Shown piece after piece: positions 1,610-9,973 of a stretch of 12,106 bases of DNA. The notes under the pieces were generated by a model. The model did not search any database. It saw only the letters and a list, made by a program, of their open reading frames with translations, and was not told the origin of the DNA. The stretch is from a virus (lineage: Duplodnaviria; Heunggongvirae; Uroviricota; Caudoviricetes). Every line of letters starts with the position of its first letter. Position 1 is the stretch's first letter. The stretch lies in the IMG/VR virus record IMGVR_UViG_2744054964_000001; one strand, given 5' to 3'. The translations under genes were made by a program, and so were the position numbers.

Positions 1610-2824
1610 GTGAAACTCAATGCCCGTCAAATAGACACAGCCAAGCCAAAAGAGAAGGCTTACAAGCTGGCCGATGGTGGCGGTTTGTATCTCTTGGTAA
1701 AACCTAATGGAGGTAAATACTGGCGACTTAAATATCGTGTAGCTGGTAAAGAGAAGCTATTGGCACTAGGTGTGTATCCTGAGGTTACTCTAGCCGATGC
1801 GCGAGCTAAACGTGAAGATGCGAAAAGGGGTATCGCTGGTGGTATCGATCCGATGGAAGCGAAACGAGAGGAAAAGATTGCCCGGGAAACGCAGTTAAAC
1901 AACACCTTCAAAGATATTGCCCTTGAGTGGCACAGCAGCAAATTAAAAAAATGGTCTGCTGGTTATGCTTCAGACATCCTCGAAGCCTTCAACAAAGATG
2001 TGTTCCCTTACATTGGCAAAAAACCAATCGCCGAAATCAAACCACTTGAACTTCTGAATGTGCTGCGGCGCATCGAGGGGCGCGGTGCTACAGAAAAAGC
2101 CAAAAAAGTGAGGCAGCGGTGCGGGGAAGTTTTCCGCTATGCAATAGTCACTGGTCGCGCAGAGTATAACCCTGCACCAGACCTTACTAGCGCGATGCAA
2201 GGTCATGAATCTAATCATTACCCTTTCCTTACAGCCAAAGAATTACCTGATTTTTTCAAGGCATTGTCCAGTTACTCAGGAAGCGCATTGGTTGTTATGG
2301 CGGCTCGTCTACTGATTATCACCGGCTTGCGGACTGGCGAACTACGTGGCGCATTATGGGATGAAATTGATTTCAACAAGGCTATCTGGGAGATACCCGC
2401 TTCACGTATGAAAATGCGGCGGCCTCATATTGTGCCATTGTCTGAGCAGGCTCTTTCGCTTATTGGGAAGATTAGAGAAATAACAGGCAATTACCCTCTT
2501 ATGTTTCCCGGGCGCAATGATCCAAGGAAAACAATGAGCGAGGCCAGCATAAACCAAGTGTTTAAGCGCATTGGCTACGCTGGACGTGTAACTGGTCATG
2601 GGTTCCGGCACACTATGAGTACGATTTTGCATGAGCAGGGCTATAACACTGCGTGGATAGAAACGCAGCTCGCTCACGTTGATAAGAACTCAATTCGTGG
2701 CACATACAACCATGCGCAATATCTGGATGGAAGGCGGGAGATGCTTCAATGGTATGCCGACTATATGGATTCTCTCGAGCATGGCGGAAATGTGGTGCAT
2801 ATGGTGTTTGAAAAACACGCATGA
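1610..2824 (+). CDS. int: P4-family tyrosine integrase
   Basis: 404-aa ORF with a GTG start 9 nt after GGAGG. The N-terminus is typical of P4-like integrases (KLADGGGLYLLVKPNGGKYWRLKYR...LALGVYPEVTLADAR). The catalytic signature is present: TGLRTGEL, HGFRHT, RGTYNHAQY. It is adjacent to the tRNA. Confidence 0.95.
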   Translation: MKLNARQIDTAKPKEKAYKLADGGGLYLLVKPNGGKYWRLKYRVAGKEKLLALGVYPEVTLADARAKREDAKRGIAGGIDPMEAKREEKIARETQLNNTFKDIALEWHSSKLKKWSAGYASDILEAFNKDVFPYIGKKPIAEIKPLELLNVLRRIEGRGATEKAKKVRQRCGEVFRYAIVTGRAEYNPAPDLTSAMQGHESNHYPFLTAKELPDFFKALSSYSGSALVVMAARLLIITGLRTGELRGALWDEIDFNKAIWEIPASRMKMRRPHIVPLSEQALSLIGKIREITGNYPLMFPGRNDPRKTMSEASINQVFKRIGYAGRVTGHGFRHTMSTILHEQGYNTAWIETQLAHVDKNSIRGTYNHAQYLDGRREMLQWYADYMDSLEHGGNVVHMVFEKHA

Positions 2825-2830
2825 AACAAC

Positions 2831-2859
2831 TGGACAAGTATACAGAGGTTTACTAAAGT
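2831..2859 (+). promoter_or_regulatory. weak candidate sigma70 promoter upstream of the nut-like array
   Basis: TGGACA (2831-2836), a 17-bp spacer, then TAAAGT (2854-2859). This is a consensus-by-eye match only. Read-through from int is an alternative transcript source. Confidence 0.25.
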
Positions 2860-2894
2860 ATAAGGGAGTAGATTGATAAAAACTCACAGAGGAT

Positions 2895-2925
2895 TGCTAT
2901 TTAACAGTTAGCCATGGAGAAGGGC
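2895..2925 (+). promoter_or_regulatory. boxA-like motif + degenerate lambda nutL-type boxB
   Basis: TGCTATTTAACAG (2895-2907) matches rrn boxA TGCTCTTTAACAA at 11/13. After 3 nt comes GCCATGGAGAAGGGC (2911-2925), a 13/15 match to lambda nutL boxB GCCCTGAAGAAGGGC. One mismatch breaks a stem pair. Confidence 0.45.
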
Positions 2926-2928
2926 AAT

Positions 2929-2958
2929 TGCTCTTTTAACAACGAAGATGGAATCTTC
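2929..2958 (+). promoter_or_regulatory. boxA-like motif + 15-nt boxB-format hairpin
   Basis: TGCTCTTTTAACAA (2929-2942) is rrn boxA with one extra T. After 1 nt comes GAAGA-TGGAA-TCTTC (2944-2958), a 5-bp stem with a pentaloop. Confidence 0.5.
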
Positions 2959-2962
2959 TACG

Positions 2963-2991
2963 CAGCTGAAAAGCTGGATGCTCTTTAACAG
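2963..2991 (+). promoter_or_regulatory. GAAA-tetraloop hairpin + near-consensus boxA
   Basis: Hairpin CAGCT-GAAA-AGCTG (2963-2976), then 2 nt, then TGCTCTTTAACAG (2979-2991), a 12/13 match to rrn boxA. Nine nt further on is the hairpin CTTTCCT-GATGC-AGGAAAG (3001-3019). Confidence 0.55.
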
Positions 2992-3076
2992 CCTTTGGTG
3001 CTTTCCTGATGCAGGAAAGAATAGGGATACATGCACCTTTACAATGCATGTAATGATTCATCCATGAGGCTGCGGA

Positions 3077-3107
3077 GCGCTGACAAAGCGCAATTGCTCT
3101 TTAACAT
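3077..3107 (+). promoter_or_regulatory. P22-type boxB hairpin + near-consensus boxA
   Basis: GCGCTGACAAAGCGC (3077-3091) has a 5-bp stem and a GACAA pentaloop. From memory it is identical to the P22 boxB RNA used in N-peptide structural work. After AAT comes TGCTCTTTAACAT (3095-3107), a 12/13 match to rrn boxA. The 24-nt unit 3077-3100 is repeated exactly at 3190-3213. Confidence 0.6.
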
Positions 3108-3115
3108 TGATGTGG

Positions 3116-3185
3116 GCGGGATGGTTCATCCCGCAGTGACCGATAGATTTCTATCGGGAAACATACAATGATTCAAATATGAATC
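3116..3185 (+). promoter_or_regulatory. three consecutive short hairpins
   Basis: GCGGGAT-GGTTC-ATCCCGC (3116-3134), CCGATAG-ATTT-CTATCGG (3140-3157) and GATTCA-AATA-TGAATC (3170-3185). All stems are perfect. Confidence 0.45.
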
Positions 3186-3189
3186 TACG

Positions 3190-3244
3190 GCGCTGACAAA
3201 GCGCAATTGCTCTCTTGCCTGCCCACCATGCCCTGAAAAAGGGC
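3190..3244 (+). promoter_or_regulatory. second P22-type boxB + degenerate boxA + exact lambda nutR boxB
   Basis: GCGCTGACAAAGCGC (3190-3204), then AAT, then TGCTCTCTT (3208-3216, a degenerate boxA). After a 13-nt spacer comes GCCCTGAAAAAGGGC (3230-3244), which is 15/15 identical to lambda nutR boxB. Confidence 0.7.
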
Positions 3245-3265
3245 GTTCTTTAAAACTACTGGATG

Positions 3266-3300
3266 TCACGCCTAATAGCGTGATCCTGCCGAAATGCAGG
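3266..3300 (+). promoter_or_regulatory. two further hairpins with hexaloops
   Basis: TCACGC-CTAATA-GCGTGA (3266-3283). Its hexaloop starts CUAA, like my recollection of the phi21 boxB loop CUAACC; this link is tentative. The second hairpin is CCTGC-CGAAAT-GCAGG (3285-3300). Confidence 0.35.
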
Positions 3301-3354
3301 GTAGCTCTACCCTTGTGGAGCAAACAAACCAAAACAATCTGACTATCTTTTATA

Positions 3355-3389
3355 AAAGACCGCAATATGTTTTTCATATTGTGGTCTTT
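3355..3389. terminator. 15-bp-stem hairpin (possible bidirectional terminator or operator) upstream of alpA
   Basis: AAAGACCGCAATATG-TTTTT-CATATTGTGGTCTTT pairs over 15 bp with one G-U. An A tract lies 5' and a short T tract 3'. It sits 87 bp upstream of the alpA ATG and is preceded by a 20-nt G-free C/A tract (3321-3340). Confidence 0.4.
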
Positions 3390-3475
3390 GGCGTATTCGA
3401 CATTTGACGCAAATAAAACTCTCGCCATTCGTTGCAGGAGGGGGTTATTGCGTCATTAGTACAGGATATTAATAA

Positions 3476-3679
3476 ATGGCTAATTACAATTCATTAATTC
3501 GTCTCTCTGAAGTTCAAAGGCGAACTGGTTATAGCAAAGCATGGATTTATCGTCTTATTAGTCAGGGGAGGTTCCCTAAACAGGTAAAAATTGGAAGTCG
3601 GGCAATTGCTTTTGTTGAGTCTGAAATAGATGAATGGATTGAGAAGTGTATATTAGAATCTAGAGACGAGGTGGCCTGA
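3476..3679 (+). CDS. alpA: AlpA-family (Vis-like) DNA-binding regulator / excisionase
   Basis: 67-aa ORF with the typical AlpA pattern LIRLSEVQRRTGYSKAWIYRLISQGRFPKQVKIGSRAIAFVESEIDEWI. It is the first gene of the island operon, and its stop overlaps the next start by 1 nt. Confidence 0.9.
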   Translation: MANYNSLIRLSEVQRRTGYSKAWIYRLISQGRFPKQVKIGSRAIAFVESEIDEWIEKCILESRDEVA

Positions 3680-4110
3680 TGGAAAAGAAAAACCGCCCAT
3701 TACAGGCGGCTAACTCAGATATTCGCACGTCTGATATTACGCCGACCACCAGCCCGGTACAAGTACCTAGGCGTACCCCAAAGAAACACCGCGCCCGCGT
3801 CTATATGCTGCGTACTGGTATAGAGGGATGGACAGAAAACGACATTCTTCGCTACTGCCGTCTGTCTTCTGGTCGTAACTATGCAACAGAGTTAGAACGC
3901 CAGCTTGGAATCACTCTGGAGCGTATCGACGAAAAGAATCCTGATGGTATCGGAACACACCTTCGCTACCGTTTCTCCTGCCGTGGTGATGTTCTGAAAG
4001 TGATCACTCATGTTAACCATCTTGCGAACATAAATGATCACAACGGACTTTCTCAGCAGGAAATTGCCGACATTCTGAAACTCTACCCGGACGCGTTTAA
4101 CGCCGCCTAA
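3679..4110 (+). CDS. hypothetical protein (basic, probably disordered N-terminus)
   Basis: 143-aa ORF translationally coupled to alpA (TGATG overlap). I recognise no domain. Confidence 0.7.
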   Translation: MEKKNRPLQAANSDIRTSDITPTTSPVQVPRRTPKKHRARVYMLRTGIEGWTENDILRYCRLSSGRNYATELERQLGITLERIDEKNPDGIGTHLRYRFSCRGDVLKVITHVNHLANINDHNGLSQQEIADILKLYPDAFNAA

Positions 4111-4956: not shown

Positions 4957-5131
4957 CCATAATCCGATGCCGGGAAGCCGTTACAAGGATTCGCACGGGG
5001 CTGTAGTGACCGTTGAGCGCGTCGAGCATAACCGAGTGACCTTTTACCGCGAGGGCTATCAGTCGCCATGTGTTCAGCCTTTGGAGAGATTCGTTAATGA
5101 GTTCGTGGAGGTGCGCCGTGATACTGAATGA
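4949..5131 (+). CDS. small DUF4222-like protein
   Basis: 60-aa ORF with a GGAGG SD and an ATGCGTAA start/stop overlap with the upstream gene. The pattern YKDSHGAVVTVERVEHNRVTFYREGY resembles DUF4222 family members as I remember them. Confidence 0.65.
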   Translation: MRNHNPMPGSRYKDSHGAVVTVERVEHNRVTFYREGYQSPCVQPLERFVNEFVEVRRDTE

Positions 5132-5171
5132 ACCTGCCGCCCAGAAAGAAGCCTTTAATCTGGCTGGCATG

Positions 5172-5187
5172 TTGTCAAAAGTTGACA
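5172..5187. promoter_or_regulatory. 16-bp palindromic motif TTGTCAAAAGTTGACA (copy 1 of 2)
   Basis: The structure is TGTCAA-N3-TTGACA. It matches 10615-10630 (TTGTCAAAACTTGACA) at 15/16. It contains the TTGACA -35 consensus but I found no good -10 partner. Confidence 0.45.
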
Positions 5188-5419
5188 TCTGCAACCTTAC
5201 AAAACCTGATATTGATACCGCAGCGCCTGGAGTTCCGTTACCAGTACGCGAGGCGCTTACCCTCAACAAAAAGATGGTGAGCCGTGCACAGGGAAAACTC
5301 TTAAAGGGTTACGGTTTTATCTGGTATGACCACCTAGCAGAGAAAAGCTGTTATAGTCCAAGCGTTGCTGCAAAATCAGCAACCGGGCGTGAGAACCCGA
5401 ACACACTCAGGGCGACACA

Positions 5420-5441
5420 GACGCCGAAAGCGTCTTTTTTT
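5420..5441 (+). terminator. candidate intrinsic terminator inside the leader of the icd-like gene
   Basis: GACGC-CGAAA-GCGTC followed by seven T residues (5435-5441). The stem is short (5-6 bp), so confidence is moderate. Confidence 0.5.
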
Positions 5442-5466
5442 GTGTCCATTCACTACGCACATCAAA

Positions 5467-5603
5467 TCAGCGGACTTACCCGTACTGTATCAATGGTGGC
5501 GTTAGTGGGGCTACGTTCGCGTAGGCCGGTTTCCTTTGTGTCCGGTATTCTCACCCCCGCTGACGTCACCGCCAATTCAGAGCGTGAGAACTCAGGCGGT
5601 GAC
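5467..5603 (+). ncRNA. structured RNA region resembling the P4 CI / P1 C4 immunity-RNA locus ('ash' region); ends not determined
   Basis: A closing stem TCAGCGG (5467-5473) / CCGCTGA (5557-5563) encloses two hairpins: a UUCG-tetraloop hairpin CTACG-TTCG-CGTAG (5511-5524) and CCGG-loop-CCGG (5526-5545). A 9-bp stem follows, GTCACCGCC (5565-5573) / GGCGGTGAC (5595-5603). The conceptual translation (MVALVGLRSRRPVSFVSGILTP) resembles 'Ash family protein' annotations, which overlie the P4 cI RNA gene. Confidence 0.45.
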
Positions 5604-5630
5604 TCCTTAAACACAAAGGAGGCTGCCATA

Positions 5631-5822
5631 ATGGCTACTACCCCTACCCAAAAACCGCAATTTATCTGGATTATCGCAGCAGTTCGCCGCGATATGCCGA
5701 CAATTACCGCCAAAATTCACCATATCGCCGCAGAGACTGAGCAGGAAGCCCGCCGCATTCTGGCGCGGGATCACGTTTGCTTTTTTGCCGGACGTATTCG
5801 CACAGGGGGCGCACATGCTTAA
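5631..5822 (+). CDS. icd: host cell division inhibitor Icd-like protein
   Basis: 63 aa starting at the ATG 7 nt after AAGGAGG (5617-5623). The pattern KPQFIWIIAAVRR...TEQEARRIL...HVCFFAGRI resembles Icd-like proteins of P4-like elements. The frame is open upstream to 5070, but that extension is judged non-coding. Confidence 0.75.
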   Translation: MATTPTQKPQFIWIIAAVRRDMPTITAKIHHIAAETEQEARRILARDHVCFFAGRIRTGGAHA

Positions 5823-7197: not shown

Positions 7198-7539
7198 ATG
7201 ATTACTAAAAATTTCCGACTTAATGCGCTGGCGAATAAGTATGCGTCGGCACTGTATAACCACATTACGGCTATCAATGGTGGCAATTACTTCATGGTTG
7301 ACGCGGCAGGCCAGCAAATCCGTGTGGAGATCGTCAATGGAGTAAAAGGCGTTCGCAGCCTGATCGATAGCTACACACTGGCAGCCATGAAAGTGTCCTA
7401 CCCGCAGTGGGAAACCGTGGGGGTCGAGCTTCTTGAGCGTTGCGTCACTAAGGACGGATTGACTGACGTCGGGCGCGAGATATGGCAAAGCATGGTTAAA
7501 GACATGGGCGCGACAGTGGCAGGAGGCAATCATGCGTAA
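7198..7539 (+). CDS. hypothetical protein
   Basis: 113-aa ORF with a GAGGGGG SD. Its stop overlaps the primase start (ATGCGTAA). Confidence 0.75.
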   Translation: MITKNFRLNALANKYASALYNHITAINGGNYFMVDAAGQQIRVEIVNGVKGVRSLIDSYTLAAMKVSYPQWETVGVELLERCVTKDGLTDVGREIWQSMVKDMGATVAGGNHA

Positions 7540-9973
7540 TATCGACCTTATCCGCGAAGTGACCAGTGCCGCCGCCGGGCGCTGGCCTTATGTGCTGGCT
7601 GGATTGTCTATCGACGTGCCTGATTCATCGCGCCGCCATTCTCCATGCCCTGCATGTGGTGGAAAAGACCGTTTCAGATTCGACGACAACGGGCGCGGTA
7701 GCTTTATCTGCAACCAGTGTGGCGCTGGTGACGGGCTGGATTTAATCAAGCGGGTTAACAACTGCGACACTACGGAGGCGGCACAGCTTGCCGCTGACGT
7801 GCTGGGTATTGATTACCGGGCAGCGCAAACCGACCCGGTGGCAGCGAGCCATAGAAGAGAGCAACTGGAAGCTGACCGCCAGCAGCGTGAGCAGGAGCGC
7901 CAGAAACAGGCAGCAGAGGATGCAGAGCAGCGAAGGGCTACGTTTGCCCGTCTGTATGCCGGAATGCGCCAGAGTGCCACACAGGGCGAATCTGATTACC
8001 TGCAATCAAAAGGGCTGACCGGGTTTAAATATCCGGTAATGCCGGATGGTTCGTTATTGCTGGAGCTGGTGGACGAATCCGGCGCAGTGGCAGCAGCGCA
8101 AACCATTACACCGCAGGGAGAGAAGCGACTCCTGACAGGTTCAGCAAAGCGCGGGGCATATCACGCCGTAAACGCGCCAGAATCGCCGCAGAGCGTTTTA
8201 ATTGCCGAGGGGCTGGCGACGGCCCTTTCAGTTCACCTGATGCGCCCGGACGCGCTGGCAGTGGCAGCAATTGACGCGGGCAACCTGCTACCCGTTGCCG
8301 AAGTGATGCGCCGGAAACACCCGCAGTCGCAAATTATCATTGCCGCAGATAACGACCACCAGCAGGACGAACAGGCGAACACGGGCAAAGATGCCGCAGA
8401 GAAAGCCGCCTTATCCGTGGCTGGCTGGGTGGCGCTGCCGCCGACAGACTATAAAGCCGACTGGGACGACTACCGCCAGCAAAACGGGCTGGAAGTCGCT
8501 ACGGCTGCGTTTAACGATTCGATGTACCAGATTCAGGGGGAAGCCGTGAAACCACAACTACAGGCCATTGCGGGCGGTAAATCCCGCCGTAAAGCCGAAG
8601 TCGGAGATATTGCACAAATGGCAGCCAGCCAGAAAGCGCGGTTGCTTTCATCTCGATGGGATATGTTGGCGGTTAACCCTGATAGTGGCACTGTTTACTG
8701 TTACGAATCTGGCGTATGGGAGAAGCTACCAGACAGTGAATTAGAAAGGGTTATGGTGGCAATTTTCGACGAGCACGAAGCCCACTACACCGAAAAGGGG
8801 ATTAAATCGGTTGTCGCAACCATGAAGCTGCAAATACCGGTAATTGGTGAGCGGAGCGGGGATCTGATTGGTTTTGATAACGGCGTTTATGACCTCGCCA
8901 CGCAGACGTTTTCCGCCCATTCGCCGGGTAACTGGCTGATGAACCACAATGGGATCACCTACACCCCGCCAGCGCCGGGGGAAAATATTACCACCAGCGC
9001 CCCCAATTTTACCCGTTGGCTGAATCATGCAACGGCTGGCGACCATCATAAGGCCGAGCGTATCAAAGCAGCCTTGTTTATGGTGCTGGCGAAGCGTCAC
9101 GACTGGCAGCTATTCATTGAGATAACTGGCGAGGGCGGCAGTGGGAAATCCGTATTCAGCAGCATAGCAACCACGCTGGCAGGTGAACACAACACCGCCA
9201 GCGGTAGCATGATGACGCTGGACACCGCACGGGGACGAGCGCAGTTCGTAGGAAAAAGCCTGATTATTATGCCTGACCAGACCCGCTATGTTGGAGAGGG
9301 TGCGGGGATTAAGGCCATTACGGGCGGCGATCCGGTAGAGATTGATGGGAAATATGAAAAGCAGTTCACAACCGTGCTAAATGCCGTTGTTATGGCAACC
9401 AATAACGAGCCGATGACATTCACGGAGCGAAACGGGGGCATTGCCCGCCGCCGCGTGATATTCCCGTTTAATAACCCGGTATCAGACGCAGACAAAGACC
9501 CGGATTTAACCGCAAAAATCAGGCGAGAAATCCCGGTGATTATCCGCCACCTGCTAACCACCTTTGCCGACCAGAACAAAGCAAAGGCACTATTACTAGA
9601 GCAGCGCGATTCGCAGGAGGCGCTAGAGGTTAAACGCGGCACAGATCCGGTTGTCGATATGTGTGCGGCGCTTTTTTTCATGAACGAACCCAAAGGCATG
9701 ATGATGGGCGGAGGTACATGGGCAGGCCAGCCAGAGCCGAGGACATATCTTTATCATCTTTATCTGGCGTTTATGGAGTATCACGGCCTGGGTAAACCGC
9801 TTTCCGTCAATAAGTTTTCACGCGCCATAAAATCAGCAGCAAAAGAGTACCGAGCCAGCTACCTGACGAGAAGCATTAACGGCAGAGCGCAAACCAACGT
9901 TGGCTATAACGAGAAGGCTGAGGAGTTCATGCCACGCGCTTACGGCGTGGAGAGCGGGCAGAGTGATGATTGA
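7532..9973 (+). CDS. P4 alpha-type bifunctional DNA primase / SF3 helicase
   Basis: 813-aa ORF. It has an N-terminal Cys4 zinc ribbon CPACGGKDRFRF...CNQCG starting at codon 39 (nt 7646). Toprim-like motifs are LIAEGLATA and IIIAADND. The Walker A motif is GEGGSGKS (nt 9128-9151) and LIIMPD is Walker-B-like. Overall architecture matches P4 gp-alpha. Confidence 0.95.
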   Translation: MRNIDLIREVTSAAAGRWPYVLAGLSIDVPDSSRRHSPCPACGGKDRFRFDDNGRGSFICNQCGAGDGLDLIKRVNNCDTTEAAQLAADVLGIDYRAAQTDPVAASHRREQLEADRQQREQERQKQAAEDAEQRRATFARLYAGMRQSATQGESDYLQSKGLTGFKYPVMPDGSLLLELVDESGAVAAAQTITPQGEKRLLTGSAKRGAYHAVNAPESPQSVLIAEGLATALSVHLMRPDALAVAAIDAGNLLPVAEVMRRKHPQSQIIIAADNDHQQDEQANTGKDAAEKAALSVAGWVALPPTDYKADWDDYRQQNGLEVATAAFNDSMYQIQGEAVKPQLQAIAGGKSRRKAEVGDIAQMAASQKARLLSSRWDMLAVNPDSGTVYCYESGVWEKLPDSELERVMVAIFDEHEAHYTEKGIKSVVATMKLQIPVIGERSGDLIGFDNGVYDLATQTFSAHSPGNWLMNHNGITYTPPAPGENITTSAPNFTRWLNHATAGDHHKAERIKAALFMVLAKRHDWQLFIEITGEGGSGKSVFSSIATTLAGEHNTASGSMMTLDTARGRAQFVGKSLIIMPDQTRYVGEGAGIKAITGGDPVEIDGKYEKQFTTVLNAVVMATNNEPMTFTERNGGIARRRVIFPFNNPVSDADKDPDLTAKIRREIPVIIRHLLTTFADQNKAKALLLEQRDSQEALEVKRGTDPVVDMCAALFFMNEPKGMMMGGGTWAGQPEPRTYLYHLYLAFMEYHGLGKPLSVNKFSRAIKSAAKEYRASYLTRSINGRAQTNVGYNEKAEEFMPRAYGVESGQSDD

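Follow-up and report, generated by a model that had tools for sequence, protein, structure and literature searches.

Gene content of the island and the int-alpA interval

The window analysed here, a stretch of 12,106 nt from the IMG/VR virus record IMGVR_UViG_2744054964_000001, contains an island whose integration site is thrW, a tRNA-Thr (CGU) gene at 1369-1444 on the + strand (ARAGORN). The att core within thrW, TCCTATTATC (1428-1437), is the core reported for EcCIMP1 (PMC11773190). A tyrosine integrase gene, int (1610-2824, + strand), is followed by alpA (3476-3679, + strand; Pfam Phage_AlpA, 7e-20), which encodes the master activator of the satellite cycle, and by the primase/helicase gene pri-rep (7532-9973), all co-oriented. 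The AlpA protein is identical to that of EcCIMP1 (WP_000035054.1), and the island belongs to the EcCIMP1 family. Co-oriented int, alpA, and pri-rep genes and site-specific integration at thrW give the island the layout of a Gram-negative PICI. Phage structural or lysis genes were not seen in the island region covered by the window, which stops before the right end of the island, and searches of the tested island ORFs against Pfam and PHROGs returned no N-like protein.

Between int and alpA lies an ORF-free interval of 651 nt (2825-3475), longer than the roughly 400 nt given in a previous interpretation made from the sequence alone (hereafter the sequence-only reading). Two ORFs in this interval, on the minus strand at 3126-3428 and on the plus strand at 3031-3171, were rejected as genes; neither has a Pfam match and both fall in regions that are deleted in shorter variants of the leader. 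A terminator consensus scan of the window found no terminator-like site after the int stop codon. The motifs of the leader share the orientation of int and alpA, as had been claimed.

Six boxA-boxB modules in the leader

We identify six co-oriented boxA-spacer-boxB modules at 2895-3283. As in phages, the array opens with a boxA and closes with a boxB, and its five boxA-like sequences and one degenerate copy, all on the + strand, lie 4-90 nt 5' of hairpins in boxB format, as expected of nut sites. The sequence TGCTCTTTAACA occurs exactly at 2979 and 3095 and with one mismatch at 2895; the copy at 2929 carries a one-base insertion (TGCTCTTTTAACA), that at 3244 reads CGTTCTTTAAAAC, and that at 3208 is degenerate. 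When up to 2 mismatches were allowed, a boxA search of the window gave 5 matches against 1.0 expected, a number reached in 0 of 200 shuffles, and three of the five fall in the leader, all on the + strand; a boxA-like motif was not found on the minus strand of the leader. These copies had been called rrn-type, which is correct as a sequence match, TGCTCTTTAACA being the E. coli rrn boxA. About 60 of 80 phage loci, however, have TGCTCTTTAACA as the boxA of their phi21-type nutR, so that a phage origin of the leader boxA is the simpler reading.

Module 1 (2895-2925) consists of the boxA-like TGCTATTTAACA (2895-2906), a 4-nt spacer, and the boxB-like GCCATGGAGAAGGGC (2911-2925), which agrees with lambda nutL boxB (GCCCTGAAGAAGGGC) at 13 of 15 positions and has a GGAGA loop. 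Its stem is broken in the window by an A.G mismatch, and relatives carry either GCCCT, which gives a perfect stem (GCCCTGGAGAAGGGC), or GCCTT, which gives a wobble pair. We dropped an assignment of module 1 to lambda N because the GGAGA loop was absent among 80 lambda-N-type phage loci. The 15-mer GCCCTGGAGAAGGGC returned more than 120 scattered environmental matches in IMG/VR and was uninformative. Module 2 (2929-2976) comprises the boxA TGCTCTTTTAACAA, a hairpin GAAGAT-GGA-ATCTTC (2944-2958), the linker UACG (2959-2962), and the boxB CAGCU-GAAA-AGCUG (2963-2976; CAGCTGAAAAGCTG). The last of these matches the prophage type NNGCU-GAAA-AGCNN, a further boxB type that the sequence-only reading had not recognised.

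In module 3 (2979-3091), a consensus boxA (2979-2990) is separated from the boxB GCGCUGACAAAGCGC (3077-3091) by 86 nt of structured spacer, in which hairpins lie at 3001-3019 and 3028-3052. Module 4 (3095-3204) ends in the same boxB (3190-3204), preceded by the linker UACG (3186-3189); its consensus boxA (3095-3106) is followed by a spacer of 83 nt that contains three hairpins (3116-3134, 3140-3157, and 3170-3185). The 3' part of the module 3 spacer is a 72% copy of that in module 4, and the two boxB copies (GCGCTGACAAAGCGC), each within an exact 24-nt repeat, are identical to the nutL boxB of both P22 and 933W. Module 5 (3208-3244) joins a degenerate boxA, TGCTCTCTTGCC (3208-3219), through a spacer to the boxB GCCCUGAAAAAGGGC (3230-3244; GCCCTGAAAAAGGGC), which is identical to lambda nutR boxB at 15 of 15 positions.

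Module 6 (3244-3284) is composed of the boxA variant CGUUCUUUAAAAC (3244-3256), a 9-nt spacer, and the hairpin UCACGC-CUAAUA-GCGUGA (3266-3283). We compared this hairpin with the phi21-type nutR boxB TCACCTCTAACCGGGTGA, taken from the Kapi1 record, its CUAACC loop being that of PMC12550061; 13 of 18 positions agree, and one stem pair is changed on both sides, from C-G to G-C. Natural phi21-type loops are CUAACC, CUAACA, and CUAAUC, from which CUAAUA differs in the last two bases; the hexaloop had already been described as phi21-like for its CUAA. The exact hairpin occurs in IMG/VR only in the EcCIMP1-type island family and in one unrelated contig, with no phage carrying it found there, and the module is invariant in 6 of 6 aligned leaders. 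The match of module 6 to Kapi1 N is thus one of resemblance only. Two to three further short hairpins follow on the + strand (3283-3302, 3298-3313, and 3304-3321), and then an A/C-rich unstructured stretch (3322-3345).

The boxB elements of modules 3, 4, and 5 are therefore identical to phage boxB, that of module 2 belongs to a prophage type, and those of modules 1 and 6 are similar only. The motifs of the sequence-only reading were reproduced at every position it had placed, and comparison with reference records bore out its 13/15 agreement with lambda nutL at 2911-2925, its identity with lambda nutR at 3230-3244, and its two copies of a P22 boxB. Its central description, a nut-like array of several specificities, agrees with the lambda nutR, P22/933W nutL, prophage GAAA, and phi21-like types distinguished here.

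The leader is unusually rich in secondary structure. Counting perfect stems of at least 5 bp with loops of 3-6 nt, we found 12 distinct hairpins in 2885-3300, whereas 1000 shuffles averaged 1.7 and never exceeded 7, and coding tiles of the window had 0-4. This is the number anticipated previously (at least 12), but only about six are in boxB format, the rest being spacer hairpins, where most had been thought to be boxB-like. The fold z-score of the leader is -7.3, against -7.2 for the opposite strand; the two are equally well folded, and the orientation is therefore drawn from the boxA and loop sequences and not from folding. A search of 2700-3600 against Rfam at a permissive threshold gave chance-level matches only (enterovirus elements and LhrA), and no curated Rfam family covers this region.

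Putative promoter and terminator flanking the array

Directly upstream of the first boxA lies a promoter-like site, TGGACA-17-TAAAGT (2831-2859, + strand), with a 9/12 consensus match. Two diverged islands, L106 (TGGACA-17-TACAGT) and Pantoea L009 (TGGAAA-17-TATATT), conserve both its position and its sequence, and we infer that it serves as the leader promoter. Downstream of the array, a terminator-like hairpin, AAAGACCGCAAUAUG-UUUUU-CAUAUUGUGGUCUUU (3355-3400, + strand), has a predicted stability of -20.8 kcal/mol (z -4.9). The U tract that follows this predicted terminator is weak (UUUGGCGUAUU), and the consensus terminator scan left the site uncalled, its T run being too short. The homologous hairpin in L106 and L009 carries a UUUU tract, and each of these islands has a second strong intrinsic terminator just 5' of alpA. 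Between the putative terminator and alpA, an inverted repeat, TGACGCAA (35 nt) TTGCGTCA (3405-3455, + strand), is a candidate AlpA operator or autoregulated PalpA region; AlpA autoactivation has been reported for EcCICFT073 and EcCIMP1 (PMC6092414, PMC11773190).

Shared ancestry with phage nut sites

At 3160-3207, 48 nt that comprise a spacer hairpin and a boxB align at about 94-96% identity with the nutL annotated in 933W, H-19B, and further Stx phages, and the match runs in the sense of the pL transcript. The build of module 2, boxA-hairpin-UACG-GAAA-boxB, is that of both putative nut sites, nutL and nutR, of the CFT073 icd lambdoid prophage. In a module 2-type set, chosen by the analyst, 7 of 10 pairs were changed on both sides, with 96% of cells paired, a result reached in 0 of 500 shuffles. 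Because of the Stx nutL match and the common build of module 2, we conclude from these alignments that the array and phage nut sites have a common ancestry, at least in part. The sequence-only reading had found the flanks of the boxB copies unlike the lambda nut regions and had argued from this against a captured prophage fragment. For 3160-3207 a lack of resemblance to phage nut regions is contradicted by the Stx nutL match, and the argument against capture does not hold in view of this stretch and of the build of module 2. Detectable flank homology to phages is confined to 3160-3207: when 2880-3080 and 3205-3340 were compared by BLAST with 50,697 phage records, no meaningful match was returned, and modules 1-3, 5, and 6 have no flank homology detectable in this way.

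Distribution and variation of the leader

The leader family is present in 279 of 5,426 complete E. coli genomes (about 5%), in variants of 651, 427, and 391 nt that differ by whole modules. The 3' 231 nt, from module 6 to alpA, are at least 99% identical in 272 of the 279 genomes; conservation within E. coli says little, however, because the family is 95-100% identical there. Module 5 occurs in 40 of the 5,426 genomes and is absent from EcCIMP1, the leader of which is a shorter variant of the one in the window.

Beyond E. coli, a strict boxA search (GCTCTTTAAC, at most 1 mismatch) 5' of 80 alpA homologues in other genera was negative and without strand bias. A looser search for the boxA core at alpA homologue loci turned up arrays at only three of them, L009, L069, and L106, and a doubtful case at L158. 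These arrays lie at the same position in diverged islands of Pantoea septica, Providencia alcalifaciens, and one IMG/VR contig, with 4 boxA cores on the + strand, 0 on the - strand, and different boxB hairpins. The succession of promoter-like site, array, terminator(s), and alpA is common to the Pantoea island and the IMG/VR contig (2 of 3 aligned). Inspection of the whole EcCICFT073 leader revealed no boxA-boxB array, and about 150 of 160 alpA homologue loci are without boxA clusters. We accordingly abandoned the idea of an array in all E. coli PICIs, and the array is not the general feature of int-alpA leaders that it might have been taken for.

A model for sensing of helper N

Helpers switch on alpA transcription in Gram-negative PICIs, but the inducer was reported in 2018 to be unknown and "under study" (PMC6092414), and we found no later identification of a helper-encoded alpA inducer in the searchable literature. 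For EcCIMP1, helper-dependent induction, packaging, and transfer have been published (PMC11773190). A reporter of its alpA leader (-449 to +50) is induced by the helper Kapi1, also in a delta-alpA mutant, and is not induced by DNA damage alone (PMC11773190). The reporter fragment spans the whole array of EcCIMP1. Kapi1 encodes a phi21-type N, which has the phi21 arginine-rich motif, and its nut sites are of phi21 type. Circumstantial support for induction by N comes, then, from membership of the EcCIMP1 family, the Kapi1-induced leader reporter, the phi21-type N and nut sites of this helper, and the hairpin before alpA.

We propose that the leader is probably a sensor for helper N, on the RNA of which N would be loaded to allow read-through of the terminator into alpA. 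When no helper is active, transcription would reach the leader from int, from the promoter-like site (2831-2859), or by both routes, and would stop at the 3355-3400 hairpin or be ended by Rho in the long untranslated RNA, so that alpA would stay off. Once a lambdoid helper is induced or infects, its early antiterminator N would be made and would bind, in the nascent leader, whichever boxB matches its arginine-rich motif, the types on offer being lambda, P22/933W, GAAA-tetraloop, and phi21-like. Acting with the neighbouring boxA and with NusA/B/E/G of the host, N would render RNA polymerase resistant to termination, and the modified polymerase would read into alpA and probably on through the downstream operon. 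AlpA would then boost its own synthesis and start excision and replication. Several boxB types in one array may widen the helper range, and modules could be gained and lost as cassettes through recombination between repeated boxB/boxA junctions. Induction of alpA by helpers does not need an array in general, because EcCICFT073, which is induced by lambda and phi80, is without one.

An alternative is that the array RNA acts as a decoy, soaking up helper N and NusB/NusE, with interference or immunity as its output; we regard this as rather unlikely as the main function, although it is compatible with a sensor. The leader does place six boxB and five or six boxA elements on one untranslated RNA, two of the boxA copies being the high-affinity consensus, and Friedman and colleagues reportedly observed in 1990 that over-expressed consensus boxA RNA competes for NusB and inhibits lambda N function. 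EcCIMP1, in which no known defence system was found, also raises the superinfection immunity of Kapi1 lysogens, but it leaves Kapi1 titres after induction unreduced (PMC11773190). A single chromosomal copy would moreover be a weak sponge before the island replicates, and a decoy need not sit between a promoter-like site and the terminator(s) before alpA, a frame that is kept in diverged islands.

It is unlikely that the leader works without N in the manner of rrn operons, with boxA recruiting NusB/E/A/G (and SuhB) against Rho and the boxB elements being inherited phage baggage. Exact copies of the rrn boxA sequence and a 650-nt untranslated RNA, an obvious Rho target, would suit such a role, and cellular genes regulated by Nus factors through boxA alone are known (review PMC12360218). 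It leaves unexplained, however, why three different phage-specific boxB loops and stems are kept exactly, why boxB changes across modules preserve the stems, why intrinsic terminators, which rrn-type complexes suppress poorly, are present, and why the EcCIMP1 leader reporter depends on a helper. That the modules are roleless scars of lambdoid nut fragments acquired from co-resident prophages by illegitimate or short-homology recombination, the helper being sensed by another site or protein, is very unlikely: the near-identical 48 nt common to the leader and Stx-phage nutL, the coming and going of modules between close relatives, the broken module 1 stem and degenerate module 5 boxA in the window, and helper induction of EcCICFT073 would fit it, but six complete tandem modules stand on one strand with no other phage-derived sequence between them, the leader family persists in 279 genomes with its nearly invariant 3' part, other genera have arrays that differ in sequence and agree in design, and the hairpin density is far above chance.

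If the leader is a sensor of helper N, it would bear on how helpers switch on Gram-negative PICIs, a question that has stood since these islands were described in 2018, by supplying a proposed cis element for alpA induction in at least the EcCIMP1 family, carried by about 5% of the complete E. coli genomes. We found no prior description of a satellite-encoded multi-specificity nut array in the searchable literature, in line with the sequence-only reading. The satellite would then be the first one known to respond to an RNA-binding antiterminator of a phage and not to a protein-protein signal, and it would illustrate in nature how a combination of nut sites can set the range of helpers. That range could be predicted from sequence by matching the modules of an array to prophage N types. 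In synthetic biology and in PICI-based delivery vehicles, the array would serve as a ready-made antitermination part with several inputs. The superinfection immunity given by EcCIMP1 might be accounted for as well. Taken more broadly, the chances seem to us evenly balanced that there is a family of RNA-based helper sensors, in which a modular multi-specificity nut array captures N before a terminator and alpA, module content tracks local phage N types, and the RNA may in addition act as a sponge for N and Nus factors and so confer superinfection immunity.

Comparison with known antitermination and satellite systems

The closest counterparts of the leader are the nut sites of lambdoid phages (lambda, P22, phi21, and H-19B/933W). 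These have the same order of boxA, spacer (with a hairpin in H-19B/933W), and boxB, with a terminator, putative in the leader, downstream; three leader boxB elements are identical to those of phages, and 48 nt of one module match 933W nutL at about 94-96% identity. The leader differs in that it belongs to a satellite without a recognisable N gene, where it would control alpA, and in that it lies between int and alpA, whereas phage nut sites stand in an early operon beside N (nutL) or cro (nutR). Whereas phages have one site per early operon, the leader has six tandem modules in 390 nt and joins several N specificities in one transcript.

The E. coli rrn leader shares with that of the satellite an identical boxA and a long untranslated structured RNA. 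It has, however, a single boxB-boxA-boxC unit with rRNA genes 3', its boxB sequence matters little, and it acts without N and mainly against Rho, whereas the satellite leader has six units in which boxA precedes boxB and is followed by a protein gene and no rRNA. We identified no boxC in the leader, and Rfam gave no match to it.

Among satellites, the Gram-negative PICIs EcCICFT073 and EcCIMP1 share with the window the succession of int, leader, alpA, and pri-rep, and EcCIMP1 shares its family, att site, and AlpA. Published work on them names neither an inducer nor a cis element, and the proposed array is absent from EcCICFT073; a nut array would explain one lineage, not all PICIs. P4 likewise involves termination, antitermination, and a structured leader RNA in its regulation, but it encodes its own factors, Psu acting on Rho and the CI RNA (seqA/seqB sites) causing termination. 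To our knowledge P4 makes no use of helper N or nut sites, and its helper P2 has no N system. The logic proposed here is shared with Stl derepression in the SaPIs and other PICIs of Gram-positive bacteria, where an early helper product that differs between islands is likewise the induction signal. In those islands the sensing is done by a repressor protein to which a phage protein binds, whereas in the satellite leader the sensor would be an RNA that recruits a phage RNA-binding antiterminator.

Layout of the island

With the order thrW, int, leader, alpA operon, primase/helicase, the window is laid out like a phage-inducible chromosomal island (PICI) of Gram-negative bacteria. A proA-like gene, represented by its 3' part (1-1254), is followed by the tRNA-Thr(CGU) gene thrW (1369-1444), with an att core, TCCTATTATC at 1428-1437, the same as that published for the E. 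coli PICI EcCIMP1 (PMC11773190). A tyrosine integrase gene (1610-2824, + strand) then precedes an ORF-poor interval of 651 nt (2825-3475), the master activator gene alpA (3476-3679, + strand) and an operon co-oriented with alpA, whose last gene encodes a primase/helicase (7532-9973). A 143-aa ORF (3679-4110) that overlaps the alpA stop codon has an N-terminal stretch rich in arginine and lysine (PRRTPKKHRARV); it has no match in Pfam or PHROGs and is named 'PM1773 family protein' by RefSeq in one genome. Within an Ash-like ORF (5070-5822), the plus strand carries a perfect intrinsic-terminator-like site at 5419-5435, AGACGC-CGAAA-GCGTCT followed by TTTTTTG, which could be an internal operon terminator passed only by antiterminated polymerase. 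The ash gene of EcCIMP1 is a pseudogene.

Six nut-like modules between int and alpA

Every motif on which the sequence-only reading had based a nut-like array was recovered in its place. The boxA sequence TGCTCTTTAACA occurs exactly at 2979 and 3095 and with one mismatch at 2895; variants comprise a one-base insertion at 2929, CGTTCTTTAAAAC at 3244 and a degenerate copy at 3208, and all copies in the leader lie on the + strand, with none on the - strand. A search for TGCTCTTTAACA allowing up to two mismatches returned 5 matches in the window against 1.0 expected, a number reached in 0/200 shuffles. The stretch 2885-3300 contains 12 distinct perfect hairpins; dinucleotide shuffles (n = 1000) averaged 1.7 and never exceeded 7, coding tiles of the window had 0-4 each, and the RNA fold of the leader has z = -7.3. 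Chance is excluded as the source of this richness. Six units make up the array, each with boxA, spacer and boxB in the order found in phages and on the + strand: M1 (2895-2925), M2 (2929-2976), M3 (2979-3091), M4 (3095-3204), M5 (3208-3244) and M6 (3244-3284), the first element being a boxA (2895) and the last a boxB (3283).

A hairpin GGGAUG-NUU-CRUCCC is common to three diverged int-alpA leaders, lying in the M4 spacer of the window (3118-3132) and closer to alpA in a Pantoea septica locus (L009, 2304-2318) and an IMG/VR contig (L106, 1135-1149). In strain BKQ37E (L090 615-1004, approximately window 3040-3428), RefSeq places a 129-aa hypothetical protein, WP_225389441.1, across the nut array on the minus strand. 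This is probably a false call: its window equivalent has no Pfam match, and the region is deleted from the 427-nt and 391-nt leader variants.

Relationship to phage nut sites

Reference nut sites were read from the phage records, in which lambda nutR is cgctcttacacattcca-GCCCTGAAAAAGGGC, lambda nutL is cgctcttaaaaattaa-GCCCTGAAGAAGGGC, P22 nutL is cgctctttaacttcgatgat-GCGCTGACAAAGCGC, and the 3' end of 933W nutL is ...cgattcgaatatgaatctacg-GCGCTGACAAAGCGC. The proposed lambda nutR boxB (3230-3244) is indeed identical at 15/15 positions; the two copies assigned to P22 (3077-3091 and 3190-3204) both match its nutL boxB at 15/15, and that of 933W equally; and the likeness of 2911-2925 to lambda nutL boxB stands at 13/15, the stem being interrupted by an A.G mismatch. 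A survey of phages with lambda-type N, conducted as for phi21-type N, yielded only GAAAA and GAAGA loops, so the M1 loop, GGAGA, has no identified cognate among them.

The sequence-only reading had set the flanks apart from lambda nut regions; at 3160-3207 they do resemble nut sites of other phages, with about 94-96% identity to nutL as annotated in 933W, H-19B and numerous further Stx phages. This stretch consists of a spacer hairpin (GATTC-AAATAT-GAATC), the linker TACG and boxB, and the phage strand that it matches is the one transcribed from pL, with N 3' of the site. This module, at a minimum, has a common ancestor with a phage nut site.

A further boxB, CAGCTGAAAAGCTG (2963-2976), had been overlooked. 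M2, TGCTCTTTTAACAA-c-GAAGATggaATCTTC-tacg-CAGCTGAAAAGCTG, has the same build as two putative nut sites of the lambdoid icd prophage of CFT073: GGCTCTTTAAACAA-c-GTCGActcTCGAC-tacg-TGGCTGAAAAGCCA, between the early left promoter region and the N-like gene, and CGCTCTTTGTAACAA-c-GGACattcGTCC-tacg-TCGCTGAAAAGCGA, 3' of the cro-like gene. Both occupy canonical nutL/nutR positions in a record that carries no nut annotation, and the prophage boxB has a GAAA tetraloop, not a pentaloop. Across eight hand-picked modules from satellites and this prophage, from which the structure was itself derived, 96% of cells in two helices are paired and both sides changed in 7 of 10 pairs; 0/500 shuffles scored as high, and slid controls fell to 26-52% paired. 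In the prophage (L091 25373-25645 and 25700-25800) the N-like protein, annotated only as 'hypothetical protein', has the N terminus MSRKTEFKGTAASRRRARRANLQ and a C terminus that resembles 933W N.

Kapi1, the helper phage of EcCIMP1, has nutR TGCTCTTTAACA-gttctggcctt-TCACCTCTAACCGGGTGA and nutL GCTCTTTAACA-tcgacggac-TCTCAACCTAACCGTTGAGA, and its N-like protein contains GTAKSRYKARRAELIAERR, which we take to be the phi21 N arginine-rich motif. Loops of nutR at 80 phage loci with Kapi1-type N were CUAACC (61), CUAACA (8) and CUAAUC (1); the phi21 boxB hexaloop is CUAACC (PMC12550061). M6, CGTTCTTTAAAAC-tactggatg-TCACGC-CTAATA-GCGTGA, shares with phi21-type nutR its boxA-to-hairpin spacing class and UCAC...GUGA stem ends, with one stem pair switched from C-G to G-C and a loop one step away from natural phi21-type variants. 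The exact hairpin is present in no phage of IMG/VR, so the earlier description of M6 as phi21-like stands as a well-founded resemblance and not as identity.

Proposed read-through control of alpA

The leader elements are arranged as would be expected if N-dependent read-through controlled alpA: a predicted promoter-like site (2831-2859, + strand, 9/12 match), the nut modules, a putative terminator hairpin (3355-3400, + strand, -20.8 kcal/mol), whose U tract is short and which is weaker than the terminators of relatives, an inverted repeat and alpA. The repeat (TGACGCAA at 3405-3412 and TTGCGTCA at 3448-3455, 35 nt apart) lies between the hairpin and the alpA ribosome-binding site and may be an AlpA operator or part of an AlpA-activated, autoregulated alpA promoter region. 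At 3355-3389 the minus-strand U tract (UUUUAUAAAAGA) is better than the plus-strand one, so the hairpin could also stop antisense transcription from the alpA side.

Helpers activate alpA transcription, with the inducer reported as unknown (PMC6092414). In EcCIMP1, an alpA-lux fusion spanning -449 to +50, which covers the whole 427-nt leader, came on upon Kapi1 induction and not with mitomycin C alone, and a response persisted, less strongly, without alpA (PMC11773190). Sequence identity, homology, structure, the order and orientation of the elements and the pattern among relatives are observations, and from them we infer the promoter, termination, N binding and N dependence. Given the element order and the fit of these helper data, we favor, with somewhat better than even confidence, the following as the most likely mechanism: helper N and host Nus factors would convert polymerase on the leader RNA, the converted polymerase would read through into alpA, and alpA would then autoactivate. 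The array RNA might also act as an N/Nus sponge, which is compatible with a sensor; this is attractive because EcCIMP1 gives unexplained superinfection immunity and carries no known defence genes, and we assign it a small probability.

Variation among leaders

Leader variants in E. coli differ by whole modules, with breakpoints within repeated boxB/boxA junctions. The EcCIMP1 leader aligns end to end with that of the window, minus 3000-3244 (M3 to M5), and a third variant (391 nt) has the M2 spacer fused to a P22-type boxB. Stem-preserving changes occur in the M2 spacer hairpin (GAAGAT/ATCTTC to GAAGG/CCTTC) and the M2 boxB (CAGCU/AGCUG to CUGCU/AGCGG). A scan covering 5,426 complete E. coli genomes placed the 3' 231 nt, from M6 to alpA, in 279, with an identity of 99% or higher in 272; the lambda-type module is found in 40 complete genomes, and the full 651-nt leader in 29. 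The family is nearly clonal within E. coli, so its conservation in this species carries no information.

Outside the EcCIMP1-type family the array is rare, with at least two boxA cores upstream on the alpA strand in just four further loci among 160 AlpA-homologue loci (70-83% identity): L009, a Providencia alcalifaciens locus (L069), L106 and the doubtful L158. In each of L009, L069 and L106 the + strand has 4 cores and the - strand none. Clear modules are found in L009 and L106, for example TGTTCTTTAAAAAA-GGCTttAGCC-tacg-TCGTTGAAAAACGA and TGTTCTTTAAATAA-tGGACgtcaGTCC-tacg-TCGCTGCAAAGCGA. These two loci keep a frame consisting of a conserved promoter-like block directly 3' of int (CTGGA(C/A)AAGTA(A/T)ACAG...AGTAGAT), a variable array, a conserved hairpin (ACCGCA.ATG...CAT.TTGTGG) with a U tract, a second, strong intrinsic terminator and alpA. 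An rrn-like, N-independent shielding of the leader from Rho is disfavoured by this conserved frame, the tandem single-strand design and the independent arrays of other genera, and we consider it improbable. The same three features speak against functionless recombination scars, which are less probable still.

The leader of EcCICFT073, a published PICI whose helpers include lambda, is quite different in sequence and has no array; boxB hairpins are absent from its int-alpA interval (L092 9161-9525). It contains CACTCTTAAAAAT, a 12/13 match to lambda nutL boxA plus flank CGCTCTTAAAAAT, as well as GACTCTTTAAGAA about 20 nt 5' of alpA and, in its 5' part, repeated (A)ACAACG/ACAA units.

Comparison with known systems

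Both nut sites and antitermination by N belong to textbook knowledge. The sequence-only reading knew of no satellite described as encoding a multi-specificity nut array, and our search agrees: a link between a satellite leader and nut sites or N was not found in the open literature covered, 7.7 million PMC papers and 0.34 million preprints. The cis elements themselves are familiar, and the novelty lies in the element that carries them, in their number, in the mix of specificities and in the role proposed for them in N-driven read-through.
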